The notes beneath the pieces were generated by a model. The model did not search any database and had not been told where the DNA came from. It saw only the letters and a program-made list of their open reading frames with translations. A stretch of DNA of 52,140 nt, from the NCBI GenBank assembly GCA_964367055.1, contig CAYIWD010000001.1, forward strand, positions 1 to 52,140. Direction: 5' to 3'. Shown here one piece after another: positions 21,987-47,046 of the stretch. The stretch comes from an uncultured Candidatus Saccharibacteria bacterium. Lineage in GTDB: Bacteria > Patescibacteriota > Minisyncoccia > UBA6257 > UBA9933. The position numbers and the translations under genes were made by a program. Positions within the stretch are counted from its first letter, which is position 1. Each line of letters starts with the position of its first letter.

Positions 21987-22137
21987 TATGCCCAGTAACA
22001 TTACTTCGATGACCTTGTTTTTCTGAAAAACAAGGTAAATGAGTAAGCTGGGTAAAATTAATAAAATTATTAAACAAAACTTTATCTAATAACTCAATTT
22101 ATTGAGTTATTAAGTCGAAGTAATGTCACTGGGTATG
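21987..22137. mobile_element. Family-1 start-codon insertion A (ORF-less, 143 bp between TATG copies)
   Basis: TATG|CCCAGTA ... CACTGGG|TATG. 22-bp arms at 21988-22009 and 22115-22136 with 2 mismatches. Internal perfect hairpins at 22012-22036 and 22087-22112. The right TATG supplies the ATG of the downstream gene. Confidence 0.6.
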
Positions 22138-23070
22138 GCAAAAATATTAATTACCGGCGCCGCCGGATACATCGGCTCAATTTTAACTCCAGAACTTTTG
22201 CGTCAAGGCCACGAAGTTATTGCTATTGATAATTTTATGTATGGCCAGCCCTCTCTTTTAGATTGTTGTCACTATAAAACATTAAAGGTGGTGCGCGGCG
22301 ATAGCAGAGATAAAAATTTAATTTCTCAATACATCAAAGACGTTGACTTTATTATTCCTTTGGCTTGTATTGTTGGAGCGCCGGCTTGCGATAGAGATCC
22401 AGAAGCGGCTCAAAGTACTAATTTTGGGGCGATTAAAACAATTTTGGAGCTTCGCCAACCCAACCAGAAAATCATCTTTCCCAATACAAACAGCGGTTAT
22501 GGTATAGGTCAGAAAGATATTCATTGCGATGAGAACACTGCGCTTAATCCGATTTCTTTATACGGCAAACTAAAGGTAGAAGCAGAAAAGGCAATTCTTG
22601 AATCGGGGAACGCTATTGTTTTCCGCCTAGCCACGGTGTTTGGCATCAGCCCTCGGATGCGCTTGGATTTATTGGTTAACGACTTTGTTTATCGGGCAGT
22701 TAATGACCGCTTTATCGTGCTTTTTGAAGCGCATTTTAAAAGAAATTATATTCATATTCGGGATGTGGCCCGGGCTTTTATTTATGCTATGAATAATTTT
22801 GAAAAGATGAAAAATGAAGCGTATAACATTGGTTTAAGTGACGCCAATTTATCTAAATGGGAATTATGCGAAGAAATAAAAAAACAACTGCCGAATTTTT
22901 ATTTTGTGGAAGCAAAAATCGGCGAAGATATAGACAAAAGAGATTATATTGTTTCTAATAAGAAAATTGAAAAAACCGGATTTAAACCAACTGTTTCACT
23001 TCAAGAAGGAATCACTGAATTAATAAAGGGTTATCAGATTGTCAAAAGAAATAATTTCGCCAATATTTAA
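22135..23070 (+). CDS. NAD-dependent sugar epimerase/dehydratase (extended SDR)
   Basis: MAKILITGAAGYIGS Rossmann motif and YGKLK catalytic YxxxK. The ATG at 22135 is preferred over the track start at 22123, which lies inside the repeat arm. Confidence 0.75.
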   Translation: MAKILITGAAGYIGSILTPELLRQGHEVIAIDNFMYGQPSLLDCCHYKTLKVVRGDSRDKNLISQYIKDVDFIIPLACIVGAPACDRDPEAAQSTNFGAIKTILELRQPNQKIIFPNTNSGYGIGQKDIHCDENTALNPISLYGKLKVEAEKAILESGNAIVFRLATVFGISPRMRLDLLVNDFVYRAVNDRFIVLFEAHFKRNYIHIRDVARAFIYAMNNFEKMKNEAYNIGLSDANLSKWELCEEIKKQLPNFYFVEAKIGEDIDKRDYIVSNKKIEKTGFKPTVSLQEGITELIKGYQIVKRNNFANI

Positions 23071-23075
23071 AATTT

Positions 23076-24563
23076 ATGGAAAATTTAGACGCACTTTTTG
23101 TTGTGCCGGGCGGCAGTAATAAGAAAATATTCCAAGGATTGACAGATTTAACAGCAATTGAACCACCAGCTTACGCTGGTTTATTTGTTAATCATTTACG
23201 AAATAGGGGATTCAATGTGAATATTATTGATGCTCCAGCCAGCGGATTAAGCCCGGAAGAAGTTGCTGATGAGGTAGTTAAAATCAATCCGCGTTTGGTG
23301 ATTATGGTGGTATATGGCCATCAGCCGTCAGCTTCTACTCAGAATATGCCGATAGCTGGAGAAACCTGCAAACAAATAAAGGTCAGAAATAAAAATATTA
23401 AAATTATAATGACCGGCACTCACCCGACATCTCTTCCAAGTAGAACACTTAGAGAAGAGGCAATTGATTTTGTTTGCGAAGGCGAAGGGCCAATGACTTT
23501 TATTTCTTTGCTTCGGGTTTTAAAGTCTGGCGGAGATTTGAGCAAGGTACCGGGTTTATGGTATTTAGAAAAAGGTGTTATAAAATCAAACGCGCCGGCA
23601 AAGTTAATTACTGATTTGGATAAGGAATTTTCCGGCATTTGCTGGGATTTGTTACTAATGGATAAATATCGGGCGCATAATTGGCATTGTTTTGGAGACA
23701 TTGAACATAGAAGTCCCTATGCCGCTATTCACACATCTTTCGGCTGTCCTTTTGGCTGTATTTATTGTTGTATTAACGCTCCGTTTGGCAAGCCGTCTTA
23801 TCGGATGTTTAGCCCTGATTATGTGATTAAGGAAATTGATATTTTGGTTAATAAATATGGAGTAAAGAATCTTAAATTTATTGATGAATTATTTGTTTTA
23901 AATGAGGACCATGTTGTAGAAATTTGCAATAGGATTATTGATAGAGGTTATGATTTGAATATTTGGGCTTATGCGAGAGTTGATACCACTGATGAAAAAC
24001 TTTTAGAAAAACTCCGTAAAGCCGGAATTAAATGGCTGGCATTAGGTATTGAATCAGGCAGTAAGCATGTGAGAGACGGCACCATTAAAAAAAGATTTGC
24101 CAATACCGACATTATTGATGTGGTTGAAAAAATTAAAAAAGCCGGCATCTATATCGGCGCCAATTATATTTTTGGCTTGCCCGACGATACTTTGGAAACA
24201 ATGCGGGAAACTCTTGATATGGCGCAGGAGATTAATGCCGAGTGGGCGAATTTTTATTGCGCTATGGCTTATCCTGGCTCACCATTATATAAAATTGCTA
24301 AAGAAAAAGGTTTGCCTTTACCAGATGATCCTAGCGGTCCGGGCTGGATTGGTTATTCTCAACACGCTTATGAAACTTTGCCCTTGCCCACCGAGACGCT
24401 TTCCGCGGCTGAAGTTTTGCGTTTCCGCGATAACGCTTTTAATACTTATTTTTCGAGCCCAGTTTATCTTGATATGATTAACAAGAAATTCGGCGAAAAA
24501 GCCGTTGAACATATTAAGCAAATGCTTTCTATTAAGTTGCGGAGAAAATTACTGGGAGAATAA
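23076..24563 (+). CDS. Cobalamin-binding (class B) radical SAM enzyme
   Basis: IIMTGTHPTS and CEGEGP. HTSFGCPFGCIYCCI cluster motif. Confidence 0.85.
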   Translation: MENLDALFVVPGGSNKKIFQGLTDLTAIEPPAYAGLFVNHLRNRGFNVNIIDAPASGLSPEEVADEVVKINPRLVIMVVYGHQPSASTQNMPIAGETCKQIKVRNKNIKIIMTGTHPTSLPSRTLREEAIDFVCEGEGPMTFISLLRVLKSGGDLSKVPGLWYLEKGVIKSNAPAKLITDLDKEFSGICWDLLLMDKYRAHNWHCFGDIEHRSPYAAIHTSFGCPFGCIYCCINAPFGKPSYRMFSPDYVIKEIDILVNKYGVKNLKFIDELFVLNEDHVVEICNRIIDRGYDLNIWAYARVDTTDEKLLEKLRKAGIKWLALGIESGSKHVRDGTIKKRFANTDIIDVVEKIKKAGIYIGANYIFGLPDDTLETMRETLDMAQEINAEWANFYCAMAYPGSPLYKIAKEKGLPLPDDPSGPGWIGYSQHAYETLPLPTETLSAAEVLRFRDNAFNTYFSSPVYLDMINKKFGEKAVEHIKQMLSIKLRRKLLGE

Positions 24564-24599
24564 ACTGAGAGGCAGAGTTTTCGGATTAAGAGTAATATA

Positions 24600-24637
24600 G
24601 GAGCGTAGTCAACAAAATACGCTCCTTTTTATTTTTT
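24600..24637 (+). terminator. Rho-independent terminator
   Basis: GGAGCGTA-(10 nt)-TACGCTCC followed by TTTTTATTTTTT, 36 nt after the stop at 24563. Confidence 0.75.
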
Positions 24638-24638
24638 A

Positions 24639-24667
24639 TTGACATTCAATTGTTGATTATGTAAATA
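24639..24667 (+). promoter_or_regulatory. Sigma70-like promoter TTGACA-17 nt-TAAATA
   Basis: Read directly. The -10 element ends 8 nt before the ATG at 24675, the left TATG copy of element B. Confidence 0.45.
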
Positions 24668-24673
24668 TACTAT

Positions 24674-24826
24674 TATGCCCAGTAGTGAGCCCGTGATAAA
24701 TTCAATTCCCAATTTGTCGGGTTTAGTGCTGGGGCAAAGATAGTCTATAAAGCAATAATTTAGTGATCCCAAAAAGCAATGAGTTAAATTAGACAAATTG
24801 CTATCGCGGATCTACTACTGGGTATG
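24674..24826. mobile_element. Family-1 start-codon insertion B (ORF-less, 145 bp between TATG copies)
   Basis: TATG|CCCAGTAGT ... ACTACTGGG|TATG. Internal hairpin at 24690-24721. The right TATG supplies the ATG of the GHMP kinase gene. Confidence 0.6.
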
Positions 24827-25822
24827 GTTATTACTCGAACCCCTTTTAGAATCTCATTTTTTGGCGGCGGCACGGATTATCCGGCTTGGTTTGAAAATTA
24901 CGGCAAAGGCGCGGTGCTTTCCACTGCGATTGATAAACACTGCTATCTTACCTGCCGATATTTGCCGCCATTTTTTGATTTCAAAACGCGAGTTGTTTGG
25001 TCAAAAATAGAAAACGTAAAAAATCACGACGAAATTGAACACTCTTCAGTGCGGGAAACTTTAAAATTTTTAAATATCCAAAAAGGATTAGAAATTCATC
25101 ACGCCGGAGATTTGCCGGCTCGTTCTGGCATGGGGACCAACTCTTCTTTTACCGTTGGTTTATTAAACGCCTTACATGCTTTAAACGGCAAGATGGTAAA
25201 TAAAAAACAATTGGCGTTAGACGCTATTCATGTAGACCAGGAAAGATTGAAAGAAAATGTTGGCTGTCAGGATCATGTGGCCGCGGCTTTCGGCGGTTTT
25301 AATAAAATTGAGTTTGGCGGCTCTGACAAAATAGCTGTTCAACCAATAGTTTTAAATTCAAAAAGATTTAATTCTTTTCAGGATCATTTAATGCTTTTTT
25401 TTACGGGTATAGTGAGGAACGCTTCGGATGTGGCGGCTGAGCAGATAAAAAATACTCACCAGAAAACACAGGAATTAAAAACTATGCTCCAAATGGTAGA
25501 TGAAGCAATTAAAATTTTAAGCGGAAATTATCCGCTTGATGACTTTGGCAAATTATTGAATGAAAGTTGGAAAATCAAACGAAGTTTGACTTCTCAGGTT
25601 AGTAATTCGGATATTGATGAAATTTATGAGACGGGCGTAAAAAATGGCGCTTTGGGAGGAAAACTTTTAGGCGCTGGCGGCGGAGGATTTATTCTATTCT
25701 TCGTTAAGCCGGAGCTACAGAGAAGGGTAAAAGAAGCGTTAAAAAATTTACTTTATGTTCCGTTTAGGTTTGAAAATTCTGGCAGTCAAATAATTTATTA
25801 CGCGCCGAACTACGCTTTTTAA
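24824..25822 (+). CDS. hddA: GHMP kinase, D-glycero-alpha-D-manno-heptose 7-phosphate kinase-like
   Basis: MVITRTPFRISFFGGGTDYPAW N-terminus, PARSGMGTNSSF (GHMP motif II) and GAGGGGF near the C-terminus. Confidence 0.75.
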   Translation: MVITRTPFRISFFGGGTDYPAWFENYGKGAVLSTAIDKHCYLTCRYLPPFFDFKTRVVWSKIENVKNHDEIEHSSVRETLKFLNIQKGLEIHHAGDLPARSGMGTNSSFTVGLLNALHALNGKMVNKKQLALDAIHVDQERLKENVGCQDHVAAAFGGFNKIEFGGSDKIAVQPIVLNSKRFNSFQDHLMLFFTGIVRNASDVAAEQIKNTHQKTQELKTMLQMVDEAIKILSGNYPLDDFGKLLNESWKIKRSLTSQVSNSDIDEIYETGVKNGALGGKLLGAGGGGFILFFVKPELQRRVKEALKNLLYVPFRFENSGSQIIYYAPNYAF

Positions 25823-25827
25823 AAATA

Positions 25828-27105
25828 ATGAGAGCCTTTTTTCTTGACAGGGACGGCGTCATTACAGAAGACGTCGCCTTTAAAAAAGTTGACCGGTTGA
25901 AAATATTACCAAATGTAGCGGCTGCTATAAAAAAACTTAACTCTTTAGGGTTGGTGATTATCGTAACTAACCGGCCGGATATCGCGAGGGGTGTTTTTAC
26001 CGAAGATGAGATAATTGTCTTGCATGAAAAAATGAAAGTTGAGCTGGAAGCTGACGGCGCCAAAATTAACGCTATTTATTATTGCCCCCATCACCCCGAG
26101 AGAAATCATTCTGACATTACTCCAGAACTTTTAAAATATCGGATTGATTGCGATTGCCGGAAGCCGAAAACCGGCATGCTTAAACAAGCAGCCAAGGATT
26201 TTAAGCTTGATTTTAAAAAATGTTTTATTATCGGCGACTCTATAAGAGATATTCAAGCTGGCGTTAACGCAGGAATTAAGACTATTGCTTTAAAAGCCGG
26301 CTACGAAGGGAGTAATAAAAAATTTGAAGCGGTACCTGATTTTATCGCCGCAGACATAGACGAAGCAGCTGATTTAATTGAAATGAATTTAAAAGTAAAA
26401 GCATTGATTTTGGCTGGCGGCCGAGGCGAGCGGATGAGACCCTTGACTGATAAAATACCGAAACCAATGCTAAGTGTTGCCGGAAAACCGATTATCTGGC
26501 ATCAGATAGAATTACTAAAAAAGCATGGCATCACGAAAATTGTCATTGCCGGTCATTATCTTTTTGATATAATTAAGAAATATTTTGGTTCTGGCGAAAA
26601 ATTCGGAGTGGAAATAGAGTATTCTGACGAAGCAGTTCTTATGGGGACCGGTGGCGCCATAAAGAACGCAGAAGCGTTCTTGAAAGATGTAGAGAATTTT
26701 ATTGTTTTAAGCGGCGATGTGATGGCAGAAATTGATGCTAAAAAAATTTTTCAATTTCATAAAAATAAAAAAGCTCTCGCCACCCTTGTTTTAAGGCACA
26801 GCGACCACCCTTATGACAGCGATGTTGTGAAAATTGATTCTGATTTTCGGGTGAAAAAATTTATCGGTCGTGGTCAAAAAGATTTGGATACAGCCATTAC
26901 TAGCATTTACGCTTTTAGAAATGATATTTTTAATTTTATTCCCAAAGAATTTTGTAATATCGAAAAAGACGTTATTAGTCGGATTCATGATTCTGAAGAT
27001 ATCTATGGCTATCTGACTGGTGATTATATAAAAGACATAGGCACGCTTGAGCGATATGAAAACGCCAAAAAATATTATGAAAAACAAAAAAATGTTTCGT
27101 TTTAG
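25828..27105 (+). CDS. Fusion of D,D-heptose 1,7-bisphosphate phosphatase (GmhB-like HAD) and sugar-1-phosphate nucleotidyltransferase (HddC-like)
   Basis: FLDRDGVI and CDCRKPKTGM, GDSIRDI (GmhB-type HAD with Zn Cys motif). Then ALILAGGRGERMRPLTDKIPKPML (nucleotidyltransferase signature). Confidence 0.75.
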   Translation: MRAFFLDRDGVITEDVAFKKVDRLKILPNVAAAIKKLNSLGLVIIVTNRPDIARGVFTEDEIIVLHEKMKVELEADGAKINAIYYCPHHPERNHSDITPELLKYRIDCDCRKPKTGMLKQAAKDFKLDFKKCFIIGDSIRDIQAGVNAGIKTIALKAGYEGSNKKFEAVPDFIAADIDEAADLIEMNLKVKALILAGGRGERMRPLTDKIPKPMLSVAGKPIIWHQIELLKKHGITKIVIAGHYLFDIIKKYFGSGEKFGVEIEYSDEAVLMGTGGAIKNAEAFLKDVENFIVLSGDVMAEIDAKKIFQFHKNKKALATLVLRHSDHPYDSDVVKIDSDFRVKKFIGRGQKDLDTAITSIYAFRNDIFNFIPKEFCNIEKDVISRIHDSEDIYGYLTGDYIKDIGTLERYENAKKYYEKQKNVSF

Positions 27106-28267
27106 CCCGCAAGCCGAGAAGCTTAAAGGCGAAGCCGCCTATACGGTTTTAGCCAGAGTTCAGGAATTGGAAAAAATGGGCAAAAAAATCATCCATTTGG
27201 AAATTGGTCAGCCTGATTTTGACACGCCTAAAATAATTTGCGATGAGGCAATTAAGGCAATTAAAGAGGGCAAAACAAAATATACTGCCCCTTTGGGAAT
27301 TTTTGAGTTACGTTCCGCTGTGGCTAACTATCTTAGTAAAAAAAGAGGTGTGAAAATCTCCCCGCAGATGGTGGGTATTATGCCTAGCGCAAAAATAGCT
27401 CTTTATCTTGCGATGACAGCGCTACTTAAACCGGGCGACGAAGTAATTTACCCTGATCCTGGCTTTCCCACTTACGTAAATATAGCGGAGTTTTTAGGCT
27501 GTGAGCCCAAACCAGTGCCTTTAGTAGAAAAAAATAATTTTAATTTTGACTTAGACGTTTTTTCCAGCCTGCTTAGTTCAAAAACAAAATTAATAATTTT
27601 GAATTCGCCTAATAACCCGACGGGCAGTGTCATCCCTCAAAAAAATCTTAAAATTATCAGCGATTTAATAAAAAAATATAATTGTTGGGTTCTATCAGAT
27701 GAGATATATTCCGAACTTCTTTATGACAAGTGTAAATATCCAAGCATTTATAGCATAAAAGGAATGCCGGAGCGGACATTATTAGTTCACGGCTTTTCCA
27801 AAACATATTCAATGACTGGCTGGCGTTTGGGTTATTTAATTTTTCCTAAAAAATTTGAATTAGTAGTAGACAATTTATCAGTTAATTCCTTTGCCTGTGC
27901 CGCTGATTTTACTCAGTACGCCGGAATAATGGCTATAAACAAAGCCGAAAAACCAGCCCAAAAAATGGTTCAAGAATTTGAAAAAAGAAGGAATTTTATA
28001 GTGAGTGCGCTAAATGAAATTCCTGGCATCAGTTGCCAGATGCCCAAAGGCGCTTTTTATGTTTTTCCCAATATTAAATCATTTGGTTTAAATTCTCAAA
28101 AAATGGCTGATTATTTATTGGATAAAGCTGGCGTGGCGCTTTTGCCAGGCACCGCTTTCGGCAAATACGGAGAGGGTTATTTAAGAGTTTCTTATGCCAA
28201 TTCAATTGAAAATATTGCTAAGGCAATAAGTAAAATTAAAGAAGCGCTTAAAAAATTGCGATCTTAA
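27092..28267 (+). CDS. Class I/II PLP-dependent aminotransferase (aspartate aminotransferase-like)
   Basis: NSPNNPTG and GFSKTYSMTGWRLGY (PLP lysine motif). The start is uncertain: 27047, 27077 or 27092. Confidence 0.75.
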   Translation: MFRFSPQAEKLKGEAAYTVLARVQELEKMGKKIIHLEIGQPDFDTPKIICDEAIKAIKEGKTKYTAPLGIFELRSAVANYLSKKRGVKISPQMVGIMPSAKIALYLAMTALLKPGDEVIYPDPGFPTYVNIAEFLGCEPKPVPLVEKNNFNFDLDVFSSLLSSKTKLIILNSPNNPTGSVIPQKNLKIISDLIKKYNCWVLSDEIYSELLYDKCKYPSIYSIKGMPERTLLVHGFSKTYSMTGWRLGYLIFPKKFELVVDNLSVNSFACAADFTQYAGIMAINKAEKPAQKMVQEFEKRRNFIVSALNEIPGISCQMPKGAFYVFPNIKSFGLNSQKMADYLLDKAGVALLPGTAFGKYGEGYLRVSYANSIENIAKAISKIKEALKKLRS

Positions 28268-28281
28268 AAATGCGTTCCGTA

Positions 28282-28310
28282 TTTACTTTTGGCCATAGTT
28301 GGTTTAATAT
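28282..28310 (+). promoter_or_regulatory. Promoter-like TTTACT-17 nt-TAATAT (copy 1 of a duplicated upstream block of about 50 nt)
   Basis: The block TTTACTTT..CCATAGTyGGTTTAATATArAAAATAT is repeated at 49754-49802. It lies 23 nt upstream of the ATG at 28333. Confidence 0.45.
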
Positions 28311-28332
28311 AAAAAATATCTAAAATAAACAT

Positions 28333-29097
28333 ATGAAAACAATAATTCTTTGTGGCGGCCAGGGTACAAGGATGAAGGAAGAAACCGAGTTTAAGCCAAA
28401 ACCTCTGGTTTTAATCGGCGGCAAGCCGATTTTATGGCATATAATGAAAATTTACAGCCATTACGGGTTTAACGACTTTATTCTGGCATTGGGTTATAAG
28501 GGTGAAATGATAAAACAATATTTTATGAATTGGCGGAGTTTAGTAAATGATTTTACCCTGGATACCAAAAATCACGAGATTGCCTTTCACAACAACGGAT
28601 GTGATGATTTTAAAATTACTTTTGCCGATACTGGCGTGGAAACAGCTCATGGGGAACGCGTTTTAAAATTAAAAGATTACGTTAAAGATGACGTTTTTAT
28701 GGTTACTTATGGGGATGGCGTTTCTAATATCGATATTTCGAAATTGGTGGATTTTCACAAAAAAAAGGGGGTAATAGCGACTATTACCGGCGTGCATCCG
28801 ACATCGCGTTGGGGCATAGTCAATATTGATAAAGATGATTTGATAAAAGATTTTAGTCAGAAACCGGATTATTATGGTTATGTTAATGGCGGTTTTATGG
28901 TTTTAAACAAAGAAATCTTTGACTATATAAAGCCTAGCGATATGATAGAGAAATCTTTACTGCGACTTATCCCGGAAAAACAGTTAGCTATGTATCGTCA
29001 CGATGACTTTTGGTTCGGGATGGATACCTATCGCGAGGTGCTTATACTTAACGAGCTGTGGCAGAATAATCCCAAGTGGAAAATATGGGAAAATTGA
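28333..29097 (+). CDS. rfbF: Glucose-1-phosphate cytidylyltransferase
   Basis: MKTIILCGGQGTRMKEETEFKPKPLVLIGGKPILWHIMKIYSHYGFNDFILALGYKG is the canonical RfbF/DdhA N-terminus. Confidence 0.85.
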   Translation: MKTIILCGGQGTRMKEETEFKPKPLVLIGGKPILWHIMKIYSHYGFNDFILALGYKGEMIKQYFMNWRSLVNDFTLDTKNHEIAFHNNGCDDFKITFADTGVETAHGERVLKLKDYVKDDVFMVTYGDGVSNIDISKLVDFHKKKGVIATITGVHPTSRWGIVNIDKDDLIKDFSQKPDYYGYVNGGFMVLNKEIFDYIKPSDMIEKSLLRLIPEKQLAMYRHDDFWFGMDTYREVLILNELWQNNPKWKIWEN

Positions 29098-30026
29098 AAA
29101 CAAAAAATATTTTAGTGACAGGAGGAGCCGGCTTTATCGGTTCTCATTTAGTAGATAAATTGATAGTGCAGGGGCATAAAGTTGTGGTTTTAGATAACTT
29201 ATCCAGCGGTAGGAGAGAAAATATAAACCCCAAGGCAAAATTTTACAAAATGGATGTTAGGAACAAAAAGGTTTCTGATATTTTTAAAAAAGAAAAAATA
29301 AGAGCTGTTTTCCATTTGGCGGCGCAGCCAATTATTGACAAGGCGTATGAAAGCCCATTTGAGGCGATAGAAACGAATATTATTGGTACGGCGAATATAT
29401 TGGAAGCATGTAGGCAAAAAGGCGATTTGGAATCTATCGTTGTTGTTTCTTCTGACAAGGCCTACGGCAAGGCAAAAAAATTACCTTATAAAGAAGATTT
29501 TCCGCTGAGAGGCGACCATCCTTATGACGCATCAAAGTCGGCTGCCGACTTAATCGCTCAAACTTATTTTTCCACTTACGGCCTGCCTATCGTGATAACC
29601 AGATTCAGCAATGTTTTCGGTCCTCGGGATTTTAATTTTTCAAGAATTATACCGGGAGCTTTAGAGGCGCTTATAAAAAATAAAGAGCTTTTAATAAGAA
29701 GCGATGGAAAAATGATAAGAGAATATACTTATGTTAAAGATATAGTTAATGGTTGTATAAAATTATTCCAGAAAATAAAAAGCGTTAAAGGAGAAGCTTT
29801 TAATTTCGGCAGCAAAAATATTTTCAGCGTTTTGGACGTTCTTAAAAAAATAGAGAAAATTCTGGGAATAAAAATTAAATATAAGATATTGAACATCGCC
29901 AAAAATGAAATACCGAAGCAATATCTTGACTGGGGTAAGGCAAAAACAAAATTAAATTGGAAACCGAAAATAAGTTTCGAAGAAGGAATAAAAGAATCAT
30001 TTAATTGGTATAGAAAATATATATGA
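29085..30026 (+). CDS. Extended SDR, CDP-glucose 4,6-dehydratase-like
   Basis: VTGGAGFIGSHL. FHLAAQPII, SSDKAYG and PYDASKSAAD resemble the RfbG motifs FHMAAQP, TSDKCY and PYSNSK. Follows rfbF. It is shorter than classical RfbG, so the specificity is tentative. Confidence 0.6.
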   Translation: MGKLKTKNILVTGGAGFIGSHLVDKLIVQGHKVVVLDNLSSGRRENINPKAKFYKMDVRNKKVSDIFKKEKIRAVFHLAAQPIIDKAYESPFEAIETNIIGTANILEACRQKGDLESIVVVSSDKAYGKAKKLPYKEDFPLRGDHPYDASKSAADLIAQTYFSTYGLPIVITRFSNVFGPRDFNFSRIIPGALEALIKNKELLIRSDGKMIREYTYVKDIVNGCIKLFQKIKSVKGEAFNFGSKNIFSVLDVLKKIEKILGIKIKYKILNIAKNEIPKQYLDWGKAKTKLNWKPKISFEEGIKESFNWYRKYI

Positions 30027-38553: not shown

Positions 38554-38585
38554 GCAATTCTATACAGGATAAAATTCAAATATTT

Positions 38586-40605: not shown

Positions 40606-40630
40606 TTTTAAAGGTTAATAACTTTTTCTA

Positions 40631-42301
40631 ATGAAACAATATACTTCTATTTTATTAATGAAGCTTCCGTATTGTACGCATCCTGACGCTAAACAAGATA
40701 ATGATTATAGAACAAAGGCGCCTTTTAGGCCCTTACCGTCATTAGCCCTTGCTTCGTTATATTCTTTTTTTGAAAAATACAGGACATGCGAATATAAACT
40801 TCAGGCTGTGGATTTAAACATTGAGGCATATTCTGCTTCAAGCATTCCCATTAATATTGCGCAATATCAGAATTCACTGGCTAAGTACATCCGGGAAAGC
40901 ATCTACGATGTATTGGCATTATCGGTTACGTTTATTTTTAACGCAAGATGGGTCCAAGAAGCAGTAGAATTATCGAGAAAATTTCATCCGCAAGCAAAAA
41001 TTATTGTTGGCGGGGGATACCCCACGCTTTTACCCGAGCGGGTATTGCAAAAACATGATGTTGATGATGTCGTCGTCGGAGAAGGAGAAGCTACTTTTTT
41101 GCATATCATAAATAAATATAACAATTATACGGATAAGAGTTTAGAAGAACATTTTCCTTTTGGAGGATATGCGATCAGAGATTCAAGCGGACATATCCAA
41201 ATGTTTCCCCAAAGAAATTATTTTTTGGATATGCGCGACCTTCCTCCGCCTCGTTGGGATTGCTTAAATGTAGAAAAGTATTTCGCAAATAGCGGCGATA
41301 TGACATTACCAATTGAGGCCAGCAGGGGGTGTCCATATAATTGTTCTTTTTGCAGCACATTTATTTCTTGGGGAAGAAAAATTAGATATAAACCGGTGGA
41401 TAATTTTGTTCAGGAAGTTTACGATGTTAAACAAAAATATCCCAATGTAAACCTTTCCGTTGTGGATGATAATATGACATTTTCCAAAGAATGGATAACA
41501 CAGTGCCTAACTCAAATAATATCCAGAAATTTAACGCATACCTTAACACCCGGCGGTTTCTCTGTAAAACACCTCGATGAAGAAGTAATAGATTTATGGA
41601 TTAAAGCCGGCTGTGAAAGATTTCATATCGCAGTTGAAACAGGATCGCCGGAGATGCAGAAACATATTCGCAAAAATATTGATTTGGAAAAAGTAAGACA
41701 ATTGGTTAGTATTTTTAGAAAAAAGAATGTGTCGTTTAATATTTTATGGATGGTTGGCTTCCCCGGCGAAACATTAAAACAGATACAAGAAACATTTGCA
41801 TTGGTGCGGGAATTGCGGGCTTTTTTAAACCAATTTTCAATCGTTTTGCCCTATCCTCAAACTGAGCTGTTTAATCAAGCAAAAGAGCAGGACCTTTTGG
41901 CATTTGATGAAGAGAACCTTGAAAATTACGATCGTCGAAAAGCGGATTGCGTAAAATCAAACGAGTGGGACCACAAACAGCTTTTGGAAATGATATATGA
42001 TATTAATATTGAAACTAATTTTCTTAATAATCCCTTCCTTGAGACTGCTGAAAAGATGGATTATTTTTTAGCCTATCTTGAGAATCTTCTTATAAAATTA
42101 CCTGACCACGTTATTGCTCATATTGTGGTTGGATATATTCAAAAAAAGAAAAATAATAATGATAAGCGCAATTTTCATTATAATAGGGGATTATCGCTTT
42201 TGCGCGATGACACTTTATCTTGTACTTTTAAAAAATATCTTAAATGGGATCACGAGATTATAAAAGATTTTAACAGCTTTCATCAGAGTAATGAAAGTTG
42301 A
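40631..42301 (+). CDS. Cobalamin-binding (class B) radical SAM enzyme
   Basis: IIVGGGYPT and VGEGEA. EASRGCPYNCSFCST cluster motif. Confidence 0.85.
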   Translation: MKQYTSILLMKLPYCTHPDAKQDNDYRTKAPFRPLPSLALASLYSFFEKYRTCEYKLQAVDLNIEAYSASSIPINIAQYQNSLAKYIRESIYDVLALSVTFIFNARWVQEAVELSRKFHPQAKIIVGGGYPTLLPERVLQKHDVDDVVVGEGEATFLHIINKYNNYTDKSLEEHFPFGGYAIRDSSGHIQMFPQRNYFLDMRDLPPPRWDCLNVEKYFANSGDMTLPIEASRGCPYNCSFCSTFISWGRKIRYKPVDNFVQEVYDVKQKYPNVNLSVVDDNMTFSKEWITQCLTQIISRNLTHTLTPGGFSVKHLDEEVIDLWIKAGCERFHIAVETGSPEMQKHIRKNIDLEKVRQLVSIFRKKNVSFNILWMVGFPGETLKQIQETFALVRELRAFLNQFSIVLPYPQTELFNQAKEQDLLAFDEENLENYDRRKADCVKSNEWDHKQLLEMIYDINIETNFLNNPFLETAEKMDYFLAYLENLLIKLPDHVIAHIVVGYIQKKKNNNDKRNFHYNRGLSLLRDDTLSCTFKKYLKWDHEIIKDFNSFHQSNES

Positions 42302-42309
42302 TATTACAT

Positions 42310-43230
42310 ATGAAATTACAAGATTTATACAATCACTATTTGTCCGGCAAGCTGGAGAAGCACAAATATATTAATATAATGCATAAAAAGCATCAGATTT
42401 TGTTTGATTATTCTGATTATCTGAAAGAAACCGATGTGAAATCAATAACCATTGGTAATGGTTTTATCTATCTGACGGTTAAGGGCAGTAATATAAAATT
42501 ATTAGTGGACAGATTTGACAGCCGGTTTATCCCAATTGAGATGCTGAATTTCCACTCGATTGACGCGCGGGAAAGAAAACTGCTTTTTAATATAGCTTCT
42601 TTGTGCCGGACAATTTTTGATATTGGGGCAAACATTGGCTGGTATTCGCTAAACTTCAGCCAGCTGCCCAAAGTGGAAAAAATTTATGCGTTTGAACCGA
42701 TTCCTTATACTTACAATTATTTAAAAAAACATCTCCAAATTAATAAGAGTCATCATGTTTCCGCTTTTAATTTTGGCTTTTCTGATGCGGCGGGCGAAAA
42801 AACGTTTTACTGGACAAAAAATGAAACAGGCAGCGCTTCAATGGTCAATATTCAAAAACGTCATAAGATAAATAAAATCAAATGTAAAATTAGCACTATA
42901 GATAAATTTATGAAAAATCGGCGTAAGGCAATTGACTTAATAAAATGCGATGTTGAAGGAGCGGAGTTATTTGTTTTTAGGGGCGCCATTAAAACATTAA
43001 AACGATGTAGGCCAATCATATTTACGGAAATGCTAAGAAAATGGTCTAAAAAGTTCGGTTATCATCCAGATGATATAATTAATTTGCTGTCGGGCTTAGG
43101 TTATCGTTGCTACGGCTACATTAATAATAAAATTAAAAGAATTGATTATGTTTCCCCCGAATTGGAGACTACTAATTTTTTCTTTTTTCATGAAGCAAAA
43201 CATAAAAAAATAATTAAAAGCTTAAAATAA
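42310..43230 (+). CDS. FkbM-family methyltransferase
   Basis: IFDIGANIGWYSL ... YAFEPIPYTY ... IDLIKCDVEGAE is typical of FkbM-domain methyltransferases. Confidence 0.75.
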   Translation: MKLQDLYNHYLSGKLEKHKYINIMHKKHQILFDYSDYLKETDVKSITIGNGFIYLTVKGSNIKLLVDRFDSRFIPIEMLNFHSIDARERKLLFNIASLCRTIFDIGANIGWYSLNFSQLPKVEKIYAFEPIPYTYNYLKKHLQINKSHHVSAFNFGFSDAAGEKTFYWTKNETGSASMVNIQKRHKINKIKCKISTIDKFMKNRRKAIDLIKCDVEGAELFVFRGAIKTLKRCRPIIFTEMLRKWSKKFGYHPDDIINLLSGLGYRCYGYINNKIKRIDYVSPELETTNFFFFHEAKHKKIIKSLK

Positions 43231-43312
43231 AAAAGGAGGGAATATGGCAGAAAACATTTCTGTTGGATCCGCCAGTCACTACCGCCGTCTTTCCTGATAA
43301 CAATTTTTTCAT
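43214..43312 (-). pseudogene. Remnant of a short-chain dehydrogenase gene (N-terminal 16 codons only)
   Basis: Minus strand: GGAGG, 6 nt, then ATG MKKLLSGKTAVVTGGS (classical SDR TGxxxGxG start). It then degenerates and stops after 32 codons, running into the 3' end of the convergent FkbM gene. Confidence 0.35.
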
Positions 43313-43420
43313 ATCAAACCTCCTTTTTCATATTTTGTTTTGGTGTGCTAATCGCTTTGTATCATCTATTTAATAAGATGTCAAGTCTTGATTTATCTCG
43401 ACTTTTAATTTACGCTAAAA

Positions 43421-44731
43421 ATGTCTATGAATGATGATTTAAAAAATAACCTGATTCAGGAATTTAAAAACAGATTTCCGTCAAAAAAATTTGTTCCTGG
43501 CGAATCTCCAATACCGGTTTCCGGTAAAGTTTTTAACGAAAAAGAAATATTAAAAATGACAGAGGCAGTTTTAGATGGTCATTGGACTGACGGCAAATAT
43601 GCCAAGGAATTTGAAGAAAAATTAGCTGAATTTTTTGGCTTAAAATTTTGTTCGCTTGTTAATTCCGGCTCTTCTGCTAATTTATTGGCTTTAACTGTCC
43701 TAACTTCTTTTAGAATTCCCGAAGAAAAACGGCTTAAAAAAGGCGACGAGGTGATAACCACAGCTGCTAGTTTTCCTACTACTATAAATCCGATTATTCA
43801 AAATGGTTTAGTACCTGTGTTTGTTAATGTTGAATTGGGGAGCTACAATGCGACACTGGAAAATGTCAAAAACGCCGTTTCAGACAAAACAAAAGCCGTT
43901 TTTATGGCTCACACTTTAGGTAATCCTTATGAGGTTGAAGAACTTAAAGAATTTTGCGAGCAAAATAATCTTTGGCTGATTGAAGATAACTCTGATAGCT
44001 TAGGTTCAAAATATAACGGAAAATTCACCGGCACCTTTGGGCATTTATCAACTTTGAGTTTTTATCCGGCGCATCATATTACAACGGGAGAAGGCGGCGC
44101 GATTTTAACGGATGATCCCTCGCTTAATAAAATTGTCCGTTCTTTGCGCGATTGGGGCCGGGACTGCTGGTGTCCGACTGGTCAAGATAATACTTGTAAA
44201 AAGAGATTTGATTGGCAATTGGGTGATTTGCCGCACGGCTATGACCACAAATATATTTACAGCGAAATCGGCTATAATTTGAAAATTACGGATATTCAAG
44301 CTGCTCTTGGCTCAGCTCAATTTGATAAATTAGCCGGATTTATTCAGAAACGGAAAGAAAATTTTAATTATTTATATACAGCATTTAAAGAATTTGAGGA
44401 TGATTTTATTTTGCCTGTTTGGGACAAAAAAGCAGACCCGAGCTGGTTTGGTTTTCTGTTAACCATTAAAAATACCGCTAAATTTAAAAGAAATGATTTA
44501 TTGAAGTTTTTAAATAACAGAAAAATCGGCACTAGATTACTTTTCGCCGGAAATATCACTCGTCAGCCATATTTTAAAAATTATAAGATAGATTATCGTA
44601 TTTCTGGAGAACTTAAAAATACAGATGAAATTATGAATAATTGTTTTTGGATTGGCGTTTACCCGGGTTTAAACAAAGAAATGCTGGATTATATAATTAA
44701 ATCTTTCAAAGAATTTTTCCCCCACTCTTAA
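43421..44731 (+). CDS. rfbH: CDP-6-deoxy-D-xylo-4-hexulose 3-dehydrase (E1, RfbH/DdhC)
   Basis: NSGSSANLLA. SFYPAHHITTGEGG, with His replacing the PLP Lys. RDWGRDCWCPTGQDNTCKKRF is the Cys-rich Fe-S segment characteristic of RfbH. Confidence 0.85.
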   Translation: MSMNDDLKNNLIQEFKNRFPSKKFVPGESPIPVSGKVFNEKEILKMTEAVLDGHWTDGKYAKEFEEKLAEFFGLKFCSLVNSGSSANLLALTVLTSFRIPEEKRLKKGDEVITTAASFPTTINPIIQNGLVPVFVNVELGSYNATLENVKNAVSDKTKAVFMAHTLGNPYEVEELKEFCEQNNLWLIEDNSDSLGSKYNGKFTGTFGHLSTLSFYPAHHITTGEGGAILTDDPSLNKIVRSLRDWGRDCWCPTGQDNTCKKRFDWQLGDLPHGYDHKYIYSEIGYNLKITDIQAALGSAQFDKLAGFIQKRKENFNYLYTAFKEFEDDFILPVWDKKADPSWFGFLLTIKNTAKFKRNDLLKFLNNRKIGTRLLFAGNITRQPYFKNYKIDYRISGELKNTDEIMNNCFWIGVYPGLNKEMLDYIIKSFKEFFPHS

Positions 44732-45011
44732 AGCATCTGATTATGTTTTTCTGTGTCTATTTGTTAAAATTAAAATTGGACGGTAGCTTTTATACCGGTT
44801 TTGCTGAGAACATCAGGGAAAGGTTGGAAAAACATAAACAGGGGCTAGTAATATCGACTAAGAATTTAAGACCTATGGAATTGGTATATTTTGAAGGATA
44901 TAAATCAAAAAGGGACGCGTTGGTAAGAGAAAAAAGACTAAAGCAGTTTAAAAAGGATATGCTTTCCTAAAGCGTAGACTTTCTGACTCTTTATTGCTTT
45001 AAGAGTGAGGG
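44719..45011. mobile_element. GIY-YIG cassette D bracketed by a 17-bp inverted repeat
   Basis: CCCCCACTCTTAAAGCA (44719-44735, includes the last codons and stop of rfbH) vs TGCTTTAAGAGTGAGGG (44995-45011, ends 1 nt before the ATG at 45012). 16/17 complementary. Confidence 0.5.
44743..44970 (+). CDS. Small GIY-YIG (URI-domain) nuclease family protein
   Basis: 75 aa. CVYLLK...GSFYTGFAENIRERLEKH...REKRLK matches the GIY / YIG / R / E pattern of COG2827-type proteins. Confidence 0.75.
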   Translation: MFFCVYLLKLKLDGSFYTGFAENIRERLEKHKQGLVISTKNLRPMELVYFEGYKSKRDALVREKRLKQFKKDMLS

Positions 45012-45959
45012 ATGAATAATAAAATTATATTATCTATTGGTGTTATTACTTATAATCAGCCCAAAGAATTAAGGCGGCTTATGCTAAGCGTTTTGCCGCA
45101 AATAGAGCCCGGAGTAGAAATTGTGATCAACGATAATAGTGATAACTTGGAAAGTGAATCAATAATTAGGAATGAATTTAATAGTCCTTATGTGCGTTAT
45201 TTTAAGAACAAAATTAATGTTGGGTCTGAAGGGAATATTCTTTTAGCAACCGAGCGATCATTGGGAAAATACGTTTGGTGGCTCGGTGATGATGAACTAA
45301 AGCCGGGCGCGATAGCTCATGTTCTATCTATTATAAAAAATAACCCTGAAATATCGCTGATTTGGATAAATTTTGAAGTTAATGGCTTATTAGCTCGGCC
45401 CTTAATTCAAGATAAATTTTTTAAAGATAGAAATCAGGTGGTTGAAGAAATTTCAAACGAGTTGGGATTTGTTTCTTCCATTATTTTTAAAAAAGAAAAG
45501 ATTATTAACATCAGTAAAGAAGACAAAGATCAATTTATCGGTTCTGATTTCATAAATCTTTATTTGGTAATGCATATTCTTAGCCAGGATGGAAAATTTT
45601 ATTATGTTGGGCATCCTTATGTTATTTGCTATCCGAGACCGGCTGAAAAGCATCCTTATGGCGGATTTGAAGTTTTCGGAATCAATTTTTATCGGATAGT
45701 TAAAAATTTTGAAGCTAAATTTGACAAAAAATCCATAAAAAAAATGCTAGCGAAGAATTTCGGTTATGTTTGGCGGGGAATTTTAGTCTGTTGGTTAAAG
45801 GGTTACGACACGCCAAAAGGCAAGTTCAAAACAATGTTTAGACTTTATTGGAATTTTCCGGAATTTTGGATAGCTGGGCCGCTTTTTTTAATGCCTAAAT
45901 TTATAACCAAATTTATTTATTTTATCTACAAAAAAGTGTTAAAACGTAAATATACATGA
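45012..45959 (+). CDS. GT2 glycosyltransferase
   Basis: LSIGVITYNQPKELRRLMLSV ... VINDNSDN ... GDDE. Confidence 0.7.
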   Translation: MNNKIILSIGVITYNQPKELRRLMLSVLPQIEPGVEIVINDNSDNLESESIIRNEFNSPYVRYFKNKINVGSEGNILLATERSLGKYVWWLGDDELKPGAIAHVLSIIKNNPEISLIWINFEVNGLLARPLIQDKFFKDRNQVVEEISNELGFVSSIIFKKEKIINISKEDKDQFIGSDFINLYLVMHILSQDGKFYYVGHPYVICYPRPAEKHPYGGFEVFGINFYRIVKNFEAKFDKKSIKKMLAKNFGYVWRGILVCWLKGYDTPKGKFKTMFRLYWNFPEFWIAGPLFLMPKFITKFIYFIYKKVLKRKYT

Positions 45960-46717
45960 CTAATGTTTTGGTAAAATTAATCGGTTATCCGGCGACGATT
46001 TTACACGGCGATGCGGCTGTTTTTGACAGATATAAATGGCTTAAAAAACATCTTAAATCTGGCCCACTGCGTACTCTTGACGCTGGCTGCGGCTCTGGCG
46101 CTTTTACGATGTATGCGGCAAAAATCGGAAATGAAGCAATAGGAATTTCTTTTGATAAGGGAAATAATGAAAAGGCGGTTAAAAGAGCAAGAATTTTAAA
46201 TATTTCCAATGTCAGTTTTATTGACGGAGATTTAAGAAAATTAGATGAAATATCCGAATCCTTGGGAAAATTTGACCAGATTATTTGTTTTGAAACAATT
46301 GAACATATTTTAGACGACAAAAAATTGATAAAAGATTTTTTTAGTTTGCTAAATCCGAGAGGAAAGCTACTTTTAACGACTCCCTATAAATTTTATAAGT
46401 CCCTTTACGGCGATGATAAAGATAAAATATCAACTTTTGAGGACGGCGGCCATGTCAGATATGGATACACGCATAAGGAAATGTCTGATTCATTGGAAAA
46501 ATCAGGTTTTGAAATTGAAGCAAAAGAATATATCACCGGCTTTTTGTCTCAGCAGCTTATTAATTTGCAAAGAATTCTCGCTGAAATAAATTCAAAACTA
46601 GCTTGGATTATTGTTTTTCCCCTAAGGATATTTCAATTTTTTGACCCGTTGATTAGCAAAATTATTAATTACCCGTATCTTTCAATTGGGGTGGTCGCGG
46701 TAAAAAAAATAGCTTAA
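45956..46717 (+). CDS. Class I SAM-dependent methyltransferase
   Basis: TLDAGCGSGAFTMYAA motif I and ICFETIEHI. No DNA-methyltransferase DPPY or PC motifs seen. Confidence 0.75.
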   Translation: MTNVLVKLIGYPATILHGDAAVFDRYKWLKKHLKSGPLRTLDAGCGSGAFTMYAAKIGNEAIGISFDKGNNEKAVKRARILNISNVSFIDGDLRKLDEISESLGKFDQIICFETIEHILDDKKLIKDFFSLLNPRGKLLLTTPYKFYKSLYGDDKDKISTFEDGGHVRYGYTHKEMSDSLEKSGFEIEAKEYITGFLSQQLINLQRILAEINSKLAWIIVFPLRIFQFFDPLISKIINYPYLSIGVVAVKKIA

Positions 46718-46727
46718 TTAAAATTAT

Positions 46728-47046
46728 TATGCCCAGTATGAGAATTTCAAAATGGCATTATGTTTATGTATTATTAAGTCAGAAGGATGATGAATTTTAT
46801 ATTGGCTATACCCAAAATCTAAGAAAAAGAATCGATGAACATAATGCCCCAAAAAATTTTTCAACTAAATCAAGAATTCCCCTGACTTTGATTTATACTG
46901 ATGCATGTCTAAATAAAGAAGATGCTCAAAGAAGAGAAAGATATCTTAAAACTACGCAAGGTCGAAGATTTCTTAAATTAAGATTGAGGAAGTTTCTACA
47001 AAATGGTAATTGAAAAATTTAATTTGAAATTCCTCTACTGGGTATG
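46728..47046. mobile_element. Family-1 start-codon insertion C carrying a GIY-YIG ORF (311 bp between TATG copies)
   Basis: TATG|CCCAGTA ... TACTGGG|TATG. Arms ATGCCCAGTAtGAG-AATTTCAAA vs the reverse complement of the right end, ATaCCCAGTA-GAGgAATTTCAAA. The left ATG is the start of the GIY-YIG ORF and the right ATG is the start of the GT4 gene. Confidence 0.6.
46729..47013 (+). CDS. Small GIY-YIG (URI-domain) nuclease family protein
   Basis: 94 aa. HYVYVLLSQKDDEFYIGYTQNLRKRIDEHN ... RRERYLK. Confidence 0.8.
   Translation: MPSMRISKWHYVYVLLSQKDDEFYIGYTQNLRKRIDEHNAPKNFSTKSRIPLTLIYTDACLNKEDAQRRERYLKTTQGRRFLKLRLRKFLQNGN

Follow-up and report, generated by a model that had tools for sequence, protein, structure and literature searches.

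Hairpin-ended mini-elements at gene start codons in Candidate Phyla Radiation bacteria: a probable mobile family with GIY-YIG nuclease-encoding and ORF-less members

Background

How can an insertion occupy the start codon of a gene in a tightly packed genome and still leave that gene a start codon? The question is raised by a DNA stretch of 52,140 nt (contig CAYIWD010000001.1 of assembly GCA_964367055.1, positions 1-52,140, forward strand; hereafter the window), in which three short segments with common ends, designated A, B and C, lie between two copies of the tetranucleotide TATG, the second copy providing the ATG of the gene that follows. An original prediction, made from this sequence, had proposed a mobile cassette that carries a gene for a GIY-YIG nuclease, together with derivatives resembling transposable elements of the miniature inverted-repeat type (MITEs). 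In the analysis reported here, the segments were followed into other genomes and metagenomes, and the interpretation is supported at the level of comparative genomics. A, B and C probably belong to a widespread family of tiny hairpin-ended mobile DNA elements of the Candidate Phyla Radiation (CPR) that is apparently undescribed, full-text literature searching having found no prior description of such an element.

Results

Elements A, B and C

The termini TATG-CCCAGTA...(C/T)ACTGGG-TATG are found at all three sites, as originally read (Table 1). The sequence TATGCCCAGT has exactly three occurrences in the window, those of A, B and C, its nearest other matches (4362 and 49727) carrying one mismatch each, and CCCAGTA occurs 8 times against 2.3 expected, a count reached in 0 of 100 shuffles. 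The arms pair beyond the 10 nt shared by the elements, as had been predicted, with a complementarity of 91% over 22 nt in A, 75% over 24 nt in B and 72% over up to 36 nt in C. RNA folding z-scores relative to shuffled sequences are -10.1, -4.6 and -4.6 for A, B and C, respectively; folded as single-stranded DNA, A reaches about -9.5 on both strands and B -4.3 on the plus and -2.4 on the minus strand.

The right ATG is the start of the host gene in each case, a claim of the original prediction that is borne out by the placement of protein domains: Pfam domains start at residues 1-8 of the proteins translated from 22135 and 47044, the GHMP-kinase protein translated from 24824 has matches to the N- as well as the C-terminal domain, and 120 homologues of the short-chain dehydrogenase/epimerase (SDR) begin with M(A/S)KILITG, in agreement with ATG 22135. 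The 94-residue protein of C was likewise recognised as a GIY-YIG protein (PF01541, E = 4e-16). The short frames beginning MPS that had been described for A, B and a partial motif at 49728 (12, 22 and 6 codons) do exist, the last of them lying outside the family.

The window is about 95% coding, with TATG as the start context of 23 of its 45 genes (51%), and several Hainich groundwater samples gave independent assemblies of the same DNA. The proteins of the window have their nearest homologues in Patescibacteria/CPR genomes (Paceibacterota, Colwellbacteria, Wolfebacteria and others). B lies probably at the 5' end of a transcript, since a terminator-like hairpin and a TTGACA box precede it; a consensus promoter scan called no promoter upstream of B, and a similar scan for an outward promoter or terminator within A or B found none.

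Table 1. Features of the window; element sizes are those between the two TATG copies
Feature	Position	Strand	Remarks
Left TATG of A	21987..21990	+	DegT-family aminotransferase gene (20820-21986) ends with TAA immediately before it
12-codon relic open reading frame of A, MPSNITSMTLFF	opened by the ATG of the left TATG, 21987..21990	+
Element A, 143 bp, without open reading frame	21991..22133	+	arms 21991-22009, 22115-22133
Internal hairpins of A	22012-22036 and 22087-22112	+
Right TATG of A	22134..22137	+	ATG 22135 starts the SDR/epimerase gene (22135-23070)
Left TATG of B	24674..24677	+	preceded by a hairpin resembling a terminator (24600-24625, with a T run) and by a TTGACA box (24639-24644)
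Element B, 145 bp, without open reading frame	24678..24822	+	arms 24678-24698, 24802-24822
Right TATG of B	24823..24826	+	ATG 24824 starts the GHMP-kinase (hddA-like) gene (24824-25822)
Left TATG of C	46728..46731	+	GIY-YIG frame starts at its ATG (46729), a captured start codon
Element C, 311 bp, protein-coding, putatively autonomous	46732..47042	+	arms 46732-46751, 47023-47042
GIY-YIG open reading frame of C, 94 aa	46729..47013	+	stop 30 nt before the host ATG
Right TATG of C	47043..47046	+	ATG 47044 starts the GT4 glycosyltransferase gene (47044-48183)
Second GIY-YIG mini-element	44720..45011	+	arms unrelated to those of A, B and C, same architecture
GIY-YIG open reading frame of the second mini-element, 75 aa	44743-44970	+
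Other hairpin repeat, ACCCCGTTAGAAGC...GCTTCTAACGGGGT	49649-49754		interior carries the 49727-49742 motif
Second window copy of the CCCCGTTAGAA repeat	11278-11377		in the linker of the 734-aa open reading frame 10317-12521
IS200/RAYT-like Y1 transposase gene, split	1631-1861 and 1834-2313		Y1_Tnp, E = 2e-9
REP-like hairpin ACGACTTGCGATGTCGT, three copies	1589, 1784, 2319	+, -, +	copy at 1784 at the gene break; region 1586-2335

The family in other genomes and metagenomes

Copies without an open reading frame (ORF) were sought in metagenomes with the exact-motif pattern ATGCCCAGTA-N(115-145)-ACTGGGTATG. This metagenome-wide search for the motif pair, which the original prediction had suggested, found at least 120 further copies; the copy statistics given below (115, 114, 117 and 124 copies; 55 arm sets) refer to the copies listed. 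The same motif gave 0 matches in 2.9 million viral contigs, both at the size of the ORF-less copies and at that of C. The motif pair is thus not a chance product, being absent from viral contigs yet present at least 120 times in metagenomes, and carriage of the elements by phages was ruled out by the same count.

The nuclease has 224 close homologues, nearly all beginning MPS(R/M/T)RIS, that is, with ATG-CCC-AGT, which agrees with the proposal that the nuclease borrows the start of the host gene; some read on through the right arm and end in ...FLYWV (TAC-TGG-GTA). The wider protein family comprises 799 representatives at 50% clustering (E <= 1e-10). The nuclease gene lies within the same ends at 8 genome loci, obtained from a single-protein query of the genome collection, and on 5 further contigs; homologues within these termini thus precede different genes in at least 12 other CPR genomes or contigs. 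The host gene behind the coding copies is different each time, its ATG (occasionally GTG) following directly; from their N-terminal sequences we take some of the host products to be ribosomal protein L10, MurD, GAPDH and an RNase J-like protein, and others were identified by Pfam as an aminoacyl-tRNA synthetase, Fpg, SecA, RecG and a polysaccharide flippase. Unrelated host genes behind family copies as a whole include rplJ, murD, gap, dnaG, fpg, secA and recG. Among the loci compared (denoted by L and a number), the arms of C recur in L004-L010, L022 and L148, and the subfamily of B also holds L025, L074 and L108, each preceding other genes.

Variant cores, CCCCGTA/TACGGGG, were observed at L135 (2795-2970) and L137 (2777-2889), where a coding element, CTA and an ORF-less element follow one another. 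The hosts there, fpg and secA, start with a GTG made of the last G of the element plus TG, so that TATG is not a strict rule at the junction.

Evidence for mobility

BLAST clustering resolves about 12 subfamilies with near-identical interiors and unrelated flanks. Two copies of one subfamily occur on a single contig (L048), one metagenome-assembled genome holds two GIY-YIG copies (L007 and L009), one with a premature stop, and tandem copies sharing one TATG were found in L022, L030, L040 and L095, including an ORF-less unit followed by a coding one. Filled and empty orthologous sites were observed on comparing L017 with L015 and L015 with L108.

For A, the empty sites at orthologous junctions by which the original prediction could be checked were found in L139-L142, which have the same synteny (transketolase, DegT, SDR, radical SAM) and an SDR 85% identical to that of the window. 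An exact-protein look-up of the window genes gave contigs that are all of the same strain and all filled, and the empty sites were reached through 84-85% identical orthologues. The junction in L139-L142 reads ...gatagtataaaaTAAtcaTATGgcaaaaatt, with a single TATG. At the base level, L139 has ...TAAtcaTATGgca, or with its upstream context ...ataaaaTAAtcaTATGgcaaaa, where the window has ...ataaaaTAA TATG[A]TATGgcaaaa; the duplex sequence of the empty site is ...TAATCATATGGCA..., and the filled junction of the window is ...gatagtataaaaTAA-TATG[CCCAGTA...CACTGGG]TATGgcaaaaata. The proposal of a mobile cassette with MITE-like derivatives is thus supported by the unrelated loci, the filled and empty sites, and the ORF remnants considered below.

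Target duplication

TATG being nearly self-complementary, the window by itself cannot separate a duplication of the target from a terminal inverted repeat, and the original prediction had left both readings (a 4-bp TATG duplication, or a 10-bp inverted repeat including part of it) side by side. Two copies at sites other than ATG decide the matter in favour of the former: the coding element of L003 is flanked by AAAA on both sides, and an ORF-less copy in L095, located at the 3' end of an SDR gene to which it provides a new stop codon, by CTTG on both sides. T precedes the left ATG in 106 of 114 listed copies, though the search pattern left this position free. The flanks are a 4-bp target-site duplication with a strong preference for (T)ATG. 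To our knowledge, insertion of the IS200/IS605 type makes no target duplication, and the AAAA and CTTG flanks argue against such a mechanism and against a recombinase with a fixed crossover core. They also rule out an IS200-like reading in which the right TATG is owned by the element and the left TATG is the target.

Location at start codons

The proposed association with start codons was examined among the unique informative ORF-less copies listed, 102 of 115 of which have an ORF of 60 codons or more starting at the right ATG; in 3 further listed copies, what follows the right TATG is another element. The corresponding proportion is 28% for all TATG sites of the same loci and about 55% for non-coding TATG in the window, so that the association is significant against both controls (p = 8e-42 and 4e-15, respectively). 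Upstream genes often stop 1-13 nt before the left ATG, as in TAA-T-ATG, which places many copies at operon-internal junctions; other copies follow -10-like boxes. Shine-Dalgarno-like motifs upstream of the element sites are rare (10 of 133), and a TATAAT-like box is seen 6-7 nt before the ATG of several host genes (upstream flanks in L004, L005, L014, L017 and L048). The scarcity of the former and the closeness of the latter to the ATG suggest that leaderless or Shine-Dalgarno-independent initiation may be frequent in these genomes.

The short ORF that begins at the left ATG terminates no more than 40 nt from the host ATG in 24 of 124 copies, the corresponding number for a control frame being 9. 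General translational coupling through this ORF was considered and set aside, as it holds in some subfamilies only and the place where the ORF ends is not consistent. The stop of the nuclease overlaps the host start (ATGA) in some coding copies, whose ORF ends ...YWV-TGA.

Covariation of the arms

In 55 distinct arm sets, positions 1-7 (CCCAGTA/TACTGGG) are almost invariant, and the changes that do occur in this core are two-sided (CCTAGTA/TACTAGG, CCCGGTA/TACCGGG, CCCCGTA/TACGGGG). Positions 8-10 are mostly mismatched, often with ATA opposite ATA, and positions 11-20 form a helix in which compensatory changes were found at 10 of 10 pairs. The original prediction had asked whether compensatory changes in the arms exceed those of shuffled controls, which they do: 95.5% of the arm cells are paired, compared with 77.5% after shuffling, double-change cells number 155, compared with 42, and on shifting the 3' partner by 1-3 columns the pairing falls to 25-45%. 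As the second helix is unconstrained in sequence but remains complementary, and one protein type goes with many arms, recognition of a folded structure fits better than recognition of a sequence. Pairing specific to the RNA of the sense strand was tried as an explanation of the arms and rejected, a strand difference being found in B only and G-T mismatches not exceeding A-C mismatches.

Two details of the ends may be recorded here. The largest superfamily (L012, L016, L026 and L048, among others) has ATA in the 5'-3' direction on both arms (CCCAGTA-ATA-CAAC... / ...GTTG-ATA-TACTGGG), a conserved symmetric 3x3 mismatch that tells the left arm from the right. A reverse complement of the left end, CTGGG(C/T)A, was noted as an internal motif 30-80 nt into the elements (22046-22056 and 24729-24738 in the window); it is present in 31 of 124 listed copies against 5.7 expected, in one orientation only, and could replace the right arm as the pairing partner of the left end.

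The nuclease and the ORF-less derivatives

The GIY-YIG gene is the sole ORF inside the ends, and a search of 883 kb of element-rich DNA for a longer element with the same ends, up to 3 kb, found tandem composites only. The protein consists of the catalytic domain and a basic C-terminal helix, with Y11/Y13, Y24-x-G26, R34, H38 and E70 invariant across 28 homologues. A dN/dS of about 0.15, with dS saturated, indicates that the ORF is under purifying selection, and the non-coding right arm is nearly unchanged across the same copies despite the saturated dS. Among solved structures, a sequence search retrieved UPF0213 proteins only (1zg2, E = 1.6e-7; 1ywl, E = 2.7e-7), and Foldseek with the predicted model (pLDDT, the model's own local confidence score, 79.5) placed 1zg2 first and then ten Slx1 chains (probability 1.0, TM score 0.57-0.63), ahead of I-TevI and UvrC. 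The nuclease is thus closest to the UPF0213/Slx1-like type; Slx1 is a structure-specific nuclease for branched DNA.

The first eight codons of the nuclease are the left arm. Copies that are not flanked by ATG (L003 and L008) start at an ATG in codon 4, a codon that is variable in ATG-flanked copies; the numbers are small and suggestive only. Several ORF-less copies retain parts of the gene: one in L109, reading MPSTTTSIK...LKFLAKRLKNYY, is an in-frame internal deletion of the nuclease type represented by P0113, those in L035, L043 and L088 keep the N-terminal part, and that in L022 keeps both ends of a C-type gene. The 12-codon frame of A, MPSNITSMTLFF, resembles the P0113-type nuclease MPSTTTSIMFFY, and a diverged coding element in L134 has the arm sequence of the ORF-less subfamily of L034. 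These collinear remnants, and the arms common to L134 and L034, point to the classic relationship of autonomous and non-autonomous elements between coding and ORF-less copies.

In public gene calls, the window nuclease (P0001) starts at the internal ATG 46738 (91 aa) and not at the conserved MPS start (46729, 94 aa), and other nuclease calls cross the right arm (..FLYWV, ..STGYGK) or gain N-terminal extensions. The elements systematically disturb annotation in this manner, called start codons being moved or extended and neighbouring ORFs fused or truncated.

A second family and other repeats

Another GIY-YIG mini-element lies in the window between a DegT-family aminotransferase gene and a family 2 glycosyltransferase (GT2) gene. 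The upstream gene takes its last three codons and its TAA stop from the left arm, CCCCACTCTTAAAGCA, and the right arm, TGCTTTAAGAGTGAGGG, adjoins the ATG of the GT2 gene at 45012. A copy with the same arms and a 69% identical nuclease homologue is located between atpF and atpH in another genome (L145, 1482-1767; also L146 and L147), where atpF ends ...P-H-S-stop within the arm, as does the upstream gene in the window. The arms of this sister family are CCC(C/T)CACTCTTAAAGC / GCTTTAA(G/A)AGTGAGGG, and its nuclease has only 11 close homologues. The occurrence of two families with unrelated arms and the same architecture indicates that the GIY-YIG gene is tied to the lifestyle of the elements and is not a chance passenger.

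The partial motif at 49728, counted with the family in the original prediction, does not belong to it. It lies inside another hairpin repeat, and its candidature as a truncated family copy was ruled out, since it is part of the CCCCGTTAGAA repeat family, whose interior has ATGCCC(A/C)G.G beside the right end in other genomes too. Hairpins of the form ACCCCGTTAGAA...(about 70-90 nt)...TTCTAACGGGGT number 49 copies in loci totalling about 930 kb (e.g., L003, L015, L030, L043, L044 and L096). As a piece of their interior, AATGCCCAGTGTGAGC, resembles the B-type left end TATGCCCAGTAGTGAGC, the CCCCGTTAGAA repeats and the family of A, B and C may be related. The second window copy of this repeat is found within a 734-aa ORF that comprises a GT2 domain (residues 16-233) and a radical-SAM/SPASM domain (390-708) with no stop between them; either the repeat has joined two genes into one, or it is itself translated, like the palindromic elements of Rickettsia.

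Discussion

Proposed mode of movement

The reading that we favour, and consider likely, is that of a family of GIY-YIG mini-transposons with MITE-like derivatives whose movement would be driven by the nuclease. An element consists of a 7-bp core, a 3-nt mismatch, a helix of about 10 bp that varies in sequence but keeps its complementarity, and a variable interior. Its insertion duplicates 4 bp of target, overwhelmingly (T)ATG, whereby the element comes to sit between two ATGs, of which the right one stays the start of the host gene and the left one becomes the start of the nuclease gene in the full-length form. The ORF-less copies (135-165 bp) are internal-deletion derivatives, presumably mobilised in trans. 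Given that a DNA-binding domain is missing from the nuclease and that branched DNA is cut by its nearest relatives of solved structure, the protein is proposed to recognise the folded ends (a hairpin or cruciform with the conserved core at its foot); it would cut at the boundary of core and flank and make a 4-nt staggered break at the target, the move being finished by host repair or ligation. The sites at start codons would reflect a target preference for (T)ATG, a bias that selection may strengthen, as only insertions there leave the host gene intact and give the nuclease ORF its initiation signals. In the mRNA, a stem of about 24 bp would fold and loop the insert out beside the regenerated AUG, mitigating the harm, and in coding copies with the ATGA overlap host translation might be coupled to that of the nuclease.

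Several observations weigh against this reading. The link between the nuclease and the movement is drawn from comparative genomics; GIY-YIG enzymes hydrolyse DNA, and we know of no strand transfer by them, so that joining would need host functions. The 94-residue protein offers no evident basis for the choice of (T)ATG, and part of the start-codon association may be survivorship, TATG being the commonest natural start in the window. The covariation of the arms is no proof of folding, as ordinary terminal inverted repeats recognised by a protein also look complementary, and G-T mismatches (G-U in RNA) are no commoner across copies than A-C mismatches (39 against 49 at arm positions 14-23 of 117 listed copies). 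The translation of the host gene has to start behind a 24-bp stem. The orientation of the interior relative to the host gene is nearly fixed, with 81 BLAST pairs in the same and 8 in the opposite orientation, 6 of the 8 involving one inverted copy that is not at a gene start. That copy (L015, 7064-7209, plus strand) is the sole one whose interior is inverted relative to its TATG flanks, and one of the few away from gene starts; its position suggests that orientation at start codons may be kept by selection on host gene expression.

Alternatives have to be weighed on the same evidence. The elements could be ordinary MITEs moved by an enzyme encoded elsewhere, be it a DDE or Y1 HUH transposase or a tyrosine or serine recombinase for which the palindromic junction TACTGGG-TATG-CCCAGTA is the site; the GIY-YIG gene would then be a passenger or a helper in retention or homing. 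Duplications of 4 bp are typical of DDE transposition, as in the IS3 and IS5 families, the tandem junction TACTGGG-TATG-CCCAGTA with its inverted arms and asymmetric spacer resembles a recombinase core, ORF-less copies far outnumber coding ones, and the window carries the split Y1_Tnp gene (1631-2313). The Y1 gene, however, has its own, different hairpins, its type of insertion would not account for variable 4-bp duplications, and a recombinase with a fixed overlap would not yield the AAAA and CTTG flanks; nor has the 883 kb of element-rich DNA disclosed a longer element with these ends. Further, the left arm contains the first eight codons of the nuclease, an arrangement that persists at saturating synonymous divergence; in at least two lineages, ORF-less copies arose from GIY-YIG copies; and the sister family with its unrelated arms again has a GIY-YIG ORF. 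We therefore regard this explanation as unlikely.

An origin at the RNA level, in which the elements are intervening sequences whose stem is processed (e.g., by RNase III) or bypassed, or neutral or regulatory leaders co-opted by the host, with DNA mobility ancient or secondary, is less probable still, and we give it little credence. It would suit the strong predicted RNA folds enclosing both AUGs, the better folding of B on the sense strand, the overlap of the nuclease stop with the host ATG in some copies, the nearly fixed orientation with its single inverted copy away from gene starts, and the insertions reported from CPR rRNA genes, which include GIY-YIG-encoding ones that are not introns and short ORF-less ones (PMC11270868). 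It is opposed by interiors that differ wholly between subfamilies, host genes without functional relation, presence and absence among orthologues, target duplications and tandem copies, and by the lack of an Rfam match, of an overall G-U excess over A-C mismatches and of a consistent end point for the left-ATG ORF; tolerance at the RNA level does not conflict with the transposon explanation and probably belongs to it. A conserved cis-regulatory leader of the riboswitch or attenuator type, serving co-regulated genes and unrelated to the GIY-YIG gene, or else a product of chance or assembly, is very improbable. All three window copies do lie in one polysaccharide-synthesis cluster, and the enriched internal CTGGGCA motif could offer an alternative pairing with the left end; elsewhere, however, the hosts range over rplJ, murD, gap, dnaG, fpg, secA, recG, an aminoacyl-tRNA synthetase gene and atp genes, no interior core is conserved across subfamilies, SDR orthologues occur without the element, the same sequence was assembled independently in several samples, and the motif is confined to metagenomes in the comparison with viral contigs. 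A host leader unrelated to the nuclease, which the original prediction had named among the findings that would overturn it, is thus at odds with the variety of hosts and with orthologous sites that are filled in one genome and empty in another.

A stronger form of the mini-transposon reading is that these elements constitute a wholly new class of transposable element, with a minimal Slx1/UPF0213-type GIY-YIG protein as the sole protein, recognition of its own folded ends, insertion at start codons with a 4-bp duplication, use of the host initiation signals, regeneration of the ATG, MITE swarms across the CPR and at least one sister family. This is advanced tentatively, at slightly less than an even chance. 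If it is true, GIY-YIG would join the DDE, DEDD, HUH, serine, tyrosine and Cas1 enzymes as a basis of DNA transposition, and if the nuclease moves the elements, the autonomous unit of about 311 bp would be among the smallest known. The start-codon logic would be a new way for a selfish element to live in tight operons without killing its host: in genomes that are about 95% coding, the element takes the host ATG and hands a copy back. Initiation directly behind a 24-bp stem becomes a testable question in bacteria that make little use of Shine-Dalgarno motifs or of leaders. The elements could also be used as strain-level markers in groundwater CPR populations, and a tiny nuclease with structure-guided cutting could serve as a tool.

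Comparison with known systems

Bacterial MITEs and their parent insertion sequences (IS), such as the Correia elements of Neisseria, the pneumococcal RUP and IS5- or IS630-derived elements, share with the present family the terminal inverted repeats, a short target duplication, many ORF-less copies with internal deletions, intergenic sites, a probable co-transcription with the neighbouring genes and the potential of the whole element to fold as a hairpin. Terminal inverted repeats, a duplication of fixed length, near-identical copies at unrelated loci and presence/absence polymorphism are all found here. The differences are that no partner with a DDE, DEDD, HUH, serine or tyrosine transposase was found among the coding copies, whose sole ORF is the 94-residue GIY-YIG protein; that the target is the start codon itself, the duplicated host ATG being used by the ORF of the element; and that only 7 bp of the ends are conserved in sequence, whereas the remaining arm varies yet stays complementary.

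The repetitive extragenic palindromes with their associated tyrosine transposases (REP/RAYT) and the IS200/IS605 group with its palindrome-associated (PATE) derivatives are alike in that structure seems to count above sequence over most of the arm, in the tetranucleotide target, the strong orientation bias and the swarms of small non-coding hairpins. They differ in the Y1 HUH protein, which is absent from the present elements, in the real 4-bp duplications observed here (AAAA, CTTG, TATG) and in the ends, which pair here with each other and do not form separate subterminal hairpins. Integron attC sites resemble the elements in architecture: a 7-nt core is conserved at both ends, a spacer stays unpaired, the second helix covaries, the centre is variable and the size between genes is about 60-150 bp. 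Their cores, however, are GTTRRRY/RYYYAAC, in contrast to CCCAGTA/TACTGGG, and cassette arrays are lacking here: the copies are single, in housekeeping operons, and in relatives without A the SDR gene is contiguous with its neighbour. No IntI integrase was found with the elements, no genome-wide integrase search having been made.

GIY-YIG homing endonucleases (the Seg proteins of T4, I-TevI) likewise place a GIY-YIG domain in a selfish insert between host genes, and the active-site residues of the domain are intact in the present nuclease. It has, unlike them, no DNA-binding domain, no long cognate target and dozens of unrelated sites, inverted repeats and a target duplication bound the element, and the fold is nearer to UPF0213/Slx1 than to I-TevI. 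On the ground of the missing DNA-binding domain and the many unrelated sites, it is not a homing endonuclease gene in the usual sense. The UPF0213/COG2827 proteins (YhbQ type) and the eukaryotic nuclease Slx1 are the best matches in sequence and fold, UPF0213 having the same size and single-domain build; UPF0213/Slx1 proteins are not described as being encoded inside mobile units bounded by inverted repeats, and Slx1 needs Slx4 and has a RING domain, unlike the nuclease here.

Comparison with structured RNAs gave no Rfam match at gathering thresholds over the whole window and nothing relevant at E <= 10 in 21900-24900, and ARAGORN found no tRNA or tmRNA; a conserved core, a single class of regulated genes and conservation at orthologous positions, by which a cis-regulatory leader would be known, were not found.

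The nearest report comes from the same bacterial group and concerns rRNA genes, not start codons: rRNA genes of CPR bacteria contain GIY-YIG-encoding insertions that are neither group I nor group II introns, at scattered sites judged inconsistent with homing, along with many uncharacterised inserts of less than 200 bp (Tsurumaki et al. 2024, PMC11270868). The passages of that report on the insertions describe no ends, duplications or hairpins; the insertions may be of the same family as A, B and C. Overall, as judged by these comparisons, the family works most like a MITE/IS system; REP/RAYT, IS200/IS605 and attC each differ from it in a defining feature.

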